NCBI RefSeq assembly: GCF_044324785.1
Contig: NZ_CP172127.1
DNA length: 64,000 bases
Reading direction: 5' to 3' (one strand)
DNA from: Escherichia coli
GTDB lineage: Bacteria; Pseudomonadota; Gammaproteobacteria; Enterobacterales; Enterobacteriaceae
Shown here piece after piece: positions 51,003 to 51,262 of this stretch (within the stretch, counting starts at the first letter, position 1; the number at the start of each line of letters is the position of its first letter). The translations under genes were made by a program, and so were the position numbers. The notes below the pieces were generated by a model, which had not been told where the DNA came from, did no database searches, and was given only the letters and a program-made list of their open reading frames with translations.

Positions 51003-51032
51003 TTTGTAAACCGTCCGGCACTCAATCGCCAA

Positions 51033-51262
51033 AAAGAAAAAAGCCAGCAGATAATCACTGCTGGCGTGGCGATTAACACCAATACTCAGTCACACATGAT
51101 GTCCGCAAATCAGTAGTCAGAATGACTCCCCTCCCACTGCATCAGTTCTTCAAGCATAGTTAATCGTTGTGGGACGCTTAACCAACGCAACCAGCACAAC
51201 TTCGCTGTCGCGGTAAAATAGTGCTGATAAAACTGACGCATGGGGCACCTCCTTGCTTCATC
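51033..51262 (-). ncRNA. sgrS: Dual-function small RNA SgrS (glucose-phosphate stress)
   Basis: Minus strand starts GATGAAGCAAGGAGGTGCCCC ATG..., contains the sgrT ORF and the conserved seed GAGUAUUGGUGU, and ends in a GC hairpin (ccagcagtgattatctgctgg) plus U-run. Confidence 0.8.
51110..51241 (-). CDS. sgrT: SgrT small protein encoded within SgrS
   Basis: 43 aa MRQFYQHYFTATAKLCWLRWLSVPQRLTMLEELMQWEGSHSDY. The track shows a longer 99-aa ORF that I trimmed. Confidence 0.8.
   Translation of the reverse strand: MRQFYQHYFTATAKLCWLRWLSVPQRLTMLEELMQWEGSHSDY

Follow-up and report, generated by a model that had tools for sequence, protein, structure and literature searches.

The best-described relative of the locus studied here is that of E. 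coli K-12 MG1655, in which the genes run in the order sgrR, sgrS/sgrT, setA (1179 bp), and leuD. Sun and Vanderpool reportedly described sgrS and setA as a read-through operon in 2011. In K-12, setA owes its expression to transcripts that run past the SgrS terminator, where termination is enhanced under stress, and deletion of this terminator raises the signal of a setA-lacZ fusion only 1.6- to 1.8-fold (PMC4509938, PMC9765468). SetA helps recovery under some stress conditions and its role is called elusive; a test of whether it exports alpha-methylglucoside gave no support for this (2014 review, PMC4021124). For other strains, Horler and Vanderpool (2009) reported that SgrS of K-12 is 88% identical to that of CFT073 or O157 and provided a synteny figure in which setA is marked (PMC2760817), and Gonzalez-Alba et al. 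(2019) stated that the AB1 sublineage “acquired” SetA (PMC6896753).

We compared these systems with the sgrS-leuD region of a 64-kb stretch of E. coli DNA, hereafter called the window. The features of this region are collected in the table below.

Features of the sgrS-leuD region, in window coordinates.
Feature	Coordinates	Strand	Basis and remarks
leuD, last gene of leuABCD	50397..51002	+	ORF list; stop TAG at 51000..51002
Spacer, leuD stop to modelled SgrS 3′ end	51003..51035	none	33 bp
Haplotype-specific block	51003..51131	none	Segment and sliding-window identities, alignment
Outer inverted-repeat arm 1, AATCGCCA	51024..51031	none	Folding
sgrS, full-length, glucose-phosphate stress small RNA	51036..51262	-	Rfam RF00534
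sgrS terminator hairpin	51043..51065	-	Terminator scan; 8 pairs, 6 of them G-C
Outer inverted-repeat arm 2, TGGCGATT	51067..51074	none	Pairs with arm 1
SgrS conserved core, CAUCAUGUGUGACUGAGUAUUGGUGU	51076..51101	-	K-12 alignment and Rfam alignment; identical to K-12
sgrT, 43 codons	51110..51241	-	Translation; ATG intact
sgrR, divergent activator of sgrS	51330..52988	+	ORF; Pfam SgrR_N, SBP_bac_5

The small RNA gene was recognized as sgrS by its score over the full covariance model (227.6 bits against a gathering score of 37, E = 1.3e-65, model positions 1-232), by the sgrT reading frame that it contains, by the conserved core followed by a terminator with a U-run, and by the divergent sgrR next to it. 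Pfam placed LeuD/Aconitase_C on the leuD product and PF15894 on the sgrT product (both searched in locus L085, which is identical to the window over 48330..55988). The leuD gene is 95.8% identical to K-12 leuD at the nucleotide level. Overall, the K-12 locus shares with the window sgrR, the sgrS promoter region, the sgrT frame, the terminator stem, and the core, which we take to be the base-pairing region of SgrS. The window differs from it in having no setA and in the 3′ ~100 nt of sgrS, which outside the core are only about 72 to 78% identical. On the far side of sgrR, we observed a further segment of ~1 kb (52983..53991), between the sgrR stop and the thiB leader, that is absent from K-12. 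It holds an ORF on the minus strand (53217..53786) for a 189-residue protein. Its counterparts at this position in O157 Sakai, IAI39, and 042 are annotated as the type III secretion effector EspY2 and are 89 to 92% identical to it. The 3′ end of sgrR beside this segment is unusually divergent from K-12 (82 to 88% in 100-column windows).

When 10 kb of K-12 sequence were aligned with the window (blastn), the two were collinear apart from the setA block, with homology ending exactly at the U-run of SgrS and, across the gap, at the stop codon of leuD. The K-12 counterpart of the spacer is setA together with its two intergenic regions, while in the window the leuD stop lies 40 bp from the base of the SgrS hairpin. 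Searches with K-12 SetA, SetB, and SetC found no homologue of any of them in the 64-kb window (tblastn; best E = 0.6), and no setA frame was found directly past the SgrS terminator, the place that it holds in a read-through operon of the K-12 type. The spacer contained no setA remnant and no copy of the hairpin that follows leuD in K-12. Compared by blastn-short with all setA-carrying loci, it returned only chance 11- to 13-mers, which indicates that nothing of setA is left and means that the deletion end points can be placed only within about 15 to 20 bp on each side. These results bear out much of a first-pass annotation made from the sequence alone. It had described a locus without its efflux component, with setA missing between sgrS and leuD and the leuD stop at 51002 only 33 bp from the SgrS end (exact with the Rfam end at 51036); it had stated correctly that the K-12 order is sgrS-setA-leuD and that setA is co-transcribed with sgrS there; and it had proposed the K-12 alignment reported above and named a setA homologue encoded nearby, outside the window, as a finding that would speak against it. 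From complete genomes with the same junction, setA is presumably absent from the rest of this strain's genome as well.

The setA-less arrangement turned out to be widespread. A 701-bp query across the junction, counted when at least 80% of it was covered in one piece, was found in 2159 of 5426 complete E. coli genomes (about 40%), and K-12 setA was found in 3241 of the same 5426, so that the two counts are complementary. In a sensitive blastn search, the setA-less genomes matched the setA query only in setB (60 to 80% identity, 13% of the query), and the band between 80 and 95% identity was empty, which argues that these complete genomes hold no diverged setA elsewhere. Among reference strains, CFT073, O157:H7 Sakai, IAI39, and 042 lack setA by annotation and UTI89 by junction match; K-12 and IAI1 carry it. 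With the phylogroups that we assume for these strains (B2 for CFT073 and UTI89, E for Sakai, F for IAI39, D for 042, A for K-12, B1 for IAI1), the setA-less junction is standard in the reference strains of phylogroups B2, D, E, and F; within E. coli, setA is carried by a single sublineage, A/B1, of which K-12 is a member. The same pattern, with setA present in A/B1 and absent elsewhere, was reported by Gonzalez-Alba et al. (PMC6896753). The setA-less locus is thus a common, ordinary, and already published polymorphism, and the first-pass annotation, which had presented the absence of setA as a departure worth noting, went too far here, given the frequency of the junction in E. coli and its presence in other Escherichia.

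The sgrS loci of CFT073 and O157:H7 Sakai described previously (PMC2760817) carry the same setA-less haplotype as the window, and SgrS of CFT073 is 99.1% identical to ours. CFT073 has an IS200C inserted in the A/U-run of the spacer. This element (about 3950..4680 of locus L082) leaves six U past the SgrS hairpin, followed by IS sequence. Over 12 kb of the window (44000..56000), the best complete E. coli genome was at most 98.3% identical; the lineage of this segment seems to be without a closed reference in the genome collection compared.

The difference between the two arrangements is not confined to setA. The first-pass annotation had suggested comparing the SgrS 3′ end between loci with and without setA, and the 3′ half differs sharply by haplotype. 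The window and K-12 agree at 96 to 99% in the flanks and at 97.5% in the 5′ half of sgrS, but the 3′ half (51036..51140) falls to 78.5%, with 72% in the lowest 100-column window; over the whole of SgrS the identity is 88.6%. The haplotype-specific block of the window corresponds to positions 3500..4848 of the K-12 locus (L001), which comprise the 3′ part of sgrS, setA, and the leu-proximal hairpin. Outside the conserved core it is about 72 to 78% identical to K-12, and it keeps both the core and the terminator stem. The setA-less E. albertii, E. whittamii, and Escherichia sp. E1V33 match the window at 96 to 97% in the sgrS 3′ half.

The haplotype break, at about 51131, falls inside the sgrT coding sequence, so that the SgrT tail reads EELMQWEGSHSDY here and EGLMQWDDRNSES in K-12. 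SgrT of the window is identical to that of CFT073; of its last 12 residues, 8 differ from the K-12 protein, beginning with residue 32. The region of the sgrT Shine-Dalgarno sequence (51241..51255, minus strand) reads AGGAGG in the window and GGGGG in K-12, where, according to Horler and Vanderpool, the GGGGG sits in a translation-inhibiting stem-loop (PMC2760817). The start codon is ATG in the window and ATT in O157 Sakai. SgrT is probably better translated from this locus than in K-12.

To place the two haplotypes in the family, one genome per species was scanned with the window SgrR, which gave 80 loci, 76 from outside Escherichia and 4 from within it. In all 76 non-Escherichia Enterobacteriaceae loci, setA lay immediately downstream of sgrS (tblastn; one of these copies runs off the end of its locus and two others are partial). 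They include Citrobacter, Salmonella enterica arizonae and diarizonae, Enterobacter, Klebsiella, Raoultella, Kluyvera, Leclercia, Buttiauxella, and others. The SetA match covers residues 115-392 in Trabulsiella odontotermitis and residues 26-392 in Citrobacter amalonaticus; both are N-terminally incomplete and may reflect a pseudogene or an alternative start. The four non-coli Escherichia genomes compared, a set that does not include E. fergusonii, E. marmotae, or E. ruysiae, were divided: setA is present in Escherichia sp. MOD1-EC7003 and missing from E. albertii, E. whittamii, and Escherichia sp. E1V33. In these last three, the junction matches that of the window at nearly every base through spacer, U-run, and hairpin, and the end points of the setA deletion were identical in the seven non-window genomes checked. 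The presence of setA in all 76 non-Escherichia loci, together with the near identity of the Escherichia junctions, indicates that the sgrS-setA arrangement is old and that the setA-less junction arose once. Judged by this gene order, sgrS-setA-leuD is the ancestral arrangement in Enterobacteriaceae. We are confident that the window represents a setA-less haplotype that goes back to one old event, shared by descent or recombination, and not a lesion of one strain.

We then considered where the setA of K-12 comes from. K-12 setA is 77 to 80% identical to that of Citrobacter and Salmonella at the nucleotide level, and the corresponding values are 78 to 80% for sgrR and 80 to 84% for leuD. Because setA is about as distant from these genera as its flanks are, and no closer, we rejected them as donors. 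Relatives within Escherichia gave a different picture. Between K-12 and MOD1-EC7003, setA is 98.5% identical and the sgrS 3′ half 100% identical, against 92 to 95.5% for the leuC, leuD, and sgrR flanks, a contrast which argues that the setA block moved between Escherichia lineages by homologous recombination. In MOD1-EC7003 the block lies at about 5440..6800 of locus L004, and its identities point to a recent exchange between lineages. Among the SetA matches listed, at least 120 in number and 94 to 100% identical to K-12 SetA, all that carried a species name were E. coli.

In the reading that we favor, setA would have been deleted early in the Escherichia lineage, in an event that took with it the setA leader and the hairpin found after leuD in K-12. 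The setA block of A/B1 would then be a divergent haplotype that was kept in, or restored from, another Escherichia lineage. Homologous replacement would have involved two crossovers, the first within sgrS near window position 51131 and the second at the leuD end. An early loss followed by a regain in A/B1 is what parsimony suggests, given the assumed phylogroups and the four non-coli Escherichia genomes. Gonzalez-Alba et al. treat the A/B1 setA as an acquisition (PMC6896753), whereas here sgrS-setA appears as the ancestral order of the family; the A/B1 strains are more aptly said to have retained, or restored, an old gene order.

Two other histories deserve weight. A long-lived polymorphism, in which the deletion allele spread repeatedly, would give the same pattern. 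Alternatively, setA may have been inherited vertically throughout E. coli, with the setA-less allele introgressed into B2, D, E, and F from other Escherichia. This would sit well with setA being ancestral in the family and with K-12 setA being as far from Citrobacter and Salmonella as its vertically inherited flanks; it would also fit the setA-less sgrS 3′ half, in which E. coli matches E. albertii or E. whittamii at 96 to 97%, above the 90 to 94% of the neighboring genes. However, setA would have to be replaced in every phylogroup other than A/B1, the published reconstruction puts a gain on the AB1 branch (PMC6896753), and MOD1-EC7003, whose flanks differ by 5 to 8%, has the K-12 block at 98.5% identity. 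We regard such an introgression as unlikely. A recent deletion in the sequenced isolate, or an assembly error, has nothing in its favor except the difference from K-12 and can be dismissed with near certainty, given the junction in 2159 complete genomes and three other Escherichia species and the 100% identity of the window over 7.66 kb to the contigs of two independent draft assemblies (GCA_044102835.1 and GCA_044685845.1).

The terminator hairpin of SgrS, read on the minus strand, is GCCAGCAG-UGAUUAU-CUGCUGGC. It folds at -14.1 kcal/mol against -12.6 kcal/mol for its K-12 counterpart, owing to a basal G-C pair where K-12 has G-U. The U-run that follows, UUUUUUCUUUUU at 51031..51042, consists of six U, a C, and five U; K-12 SgrS has eight consecutive U, and the Citrobacter run is interrupted like that of the window. 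Terminators of Hfq-binding small RNAs typically have more than seven consecutive T (Morita et al., PMC4509938). The hairpin and its A/U-run are enclosed by an outer inverted repeat of 8 bp. With it, the minus-strand fold reaches about -23 kcal/mol (z = -5.4), and the repeat can form the same pairing on the plus strand. This repeat was kept in all the setA-less Escherichia checked and is absent in K-12. The spacer, too, is conserved, both in E. coli without setA and in E. albertii, E. whittamii, and Escherichia sp. E1V33. In E. albertii one base of the repeat differs (AATCGTCA), a substitution that leaves the arms paired in the plus-strand RNA only. Promoter-like matches on the plus strand at 51026..51055 and 51073..51100 agree with the consensus at only 9 of 12 positions.

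The first-pass annotation had read the SgrS hairpin as a bidirectional terminator, which would serve both sgrS and the leu operon. The idea has some appeal: the hairpin found after leuD in K-12 went with the deletion, none other separates leuD from sgrS, and the plus-strand form of the SgrS hairpin with the outer repeat reaches about -23 kcal/mol. The two strands are nonetheless unequal. Past the hairpin on the plus strand there is no U-run but GTGGCGATTAACACC, and the terminator scan called no plus-strand terminator in 50700..51500, only the one on the minus strand, which argues against a canonical bidirectional terminator. A U-run on both strands is what such an element should show, and here UUUUUUCUUUUU on the minus strand is matched on the plus strand by GUGGCGAUUAACACC, with at most two consecutive U. 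In known bidirectional terminators, an A-tract and a U-tract are said to flank the stem (Ju et al., 2019). We consider it quite improbable that this hairpin is a true bidirectional intrinsic terminator, and prefer to see in it a likely intrinsic terminator for sgrS alone, which to leu transcripts would present a hairpin without a U-run.

The hairpin after leuD in K-12, GCCCGGUCA-AA-UGACCGGGC (-17.4 kcal/mol) followed by UUUCCGCU, also lacks the U-run that the scan demands. As this hairpin is deleted in the window and no plus-strand terminator was detected, leu transcripts would be expected to enter sgrS in the antisense direction. The antisense sgrS RNA has a C/G ratio of 1.6 to 2.3 over 51066..51200, and the leu operon probably ends within this C-rich RNA by inefficient or Rho-dependent termination. 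More speculatively still, and with very little confidence on our part, convergent transcription of leu and sgrS might couple leucine supply to glucose-phosphate stress, with the outer repeat acting as a 3′ stem of the leu mRNA. If this were true, leu read-through, abundant under leucine limitation, would be antisense to the terminator/Hfq module and the core of SgrS. The E. albertii substitution described above is compatible with such a coupling but far too little to serve as evidence for it.

As for function, the SgrR regulon at a setA-less locus would consist of SgrS and SgrT only, with sgrS/sgrT a stand-alone unit that ends at its own terminator, and read-through of that terminator would yield only RNA antisense to the 3′ end of leuD. 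Strains of this kind would thus handle glucose-phosphate stress with SgrS base pairing and SgrT alone. Of the 5426 complete E. coli genomes, 5413 carry the paralogue setB, whose product is 52% identical to SetA in amino-acid sequence, and 4281 carry setC. Since setB is nearly universal in E. coli, efflux of the SET family is not lost from setA-less genomes, and for the same reason we would not expect a large phenotype from the absence of setA.

The divergent, sharp-edged haplotype provides an example of the 3′ end of a small RNA being swapped together with a neighboring gene by homologous recombination, and the published “gain” of setA in A/B1 restores the ancestral arrangement of Enterobacteriaceae. 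K-12 is accordingly not the reference state for the sgrS-leuD locus. The work on sgrS-setA read-through and on the role of SetA in stress applies to A/B1 strains; it does not carry over to the uropathogenic strains CFT073 and UTI89, to O157:H7 Sakai, to the enteroaggregative strain 042, or to E. albertii, in which SgrS is monocistronic.
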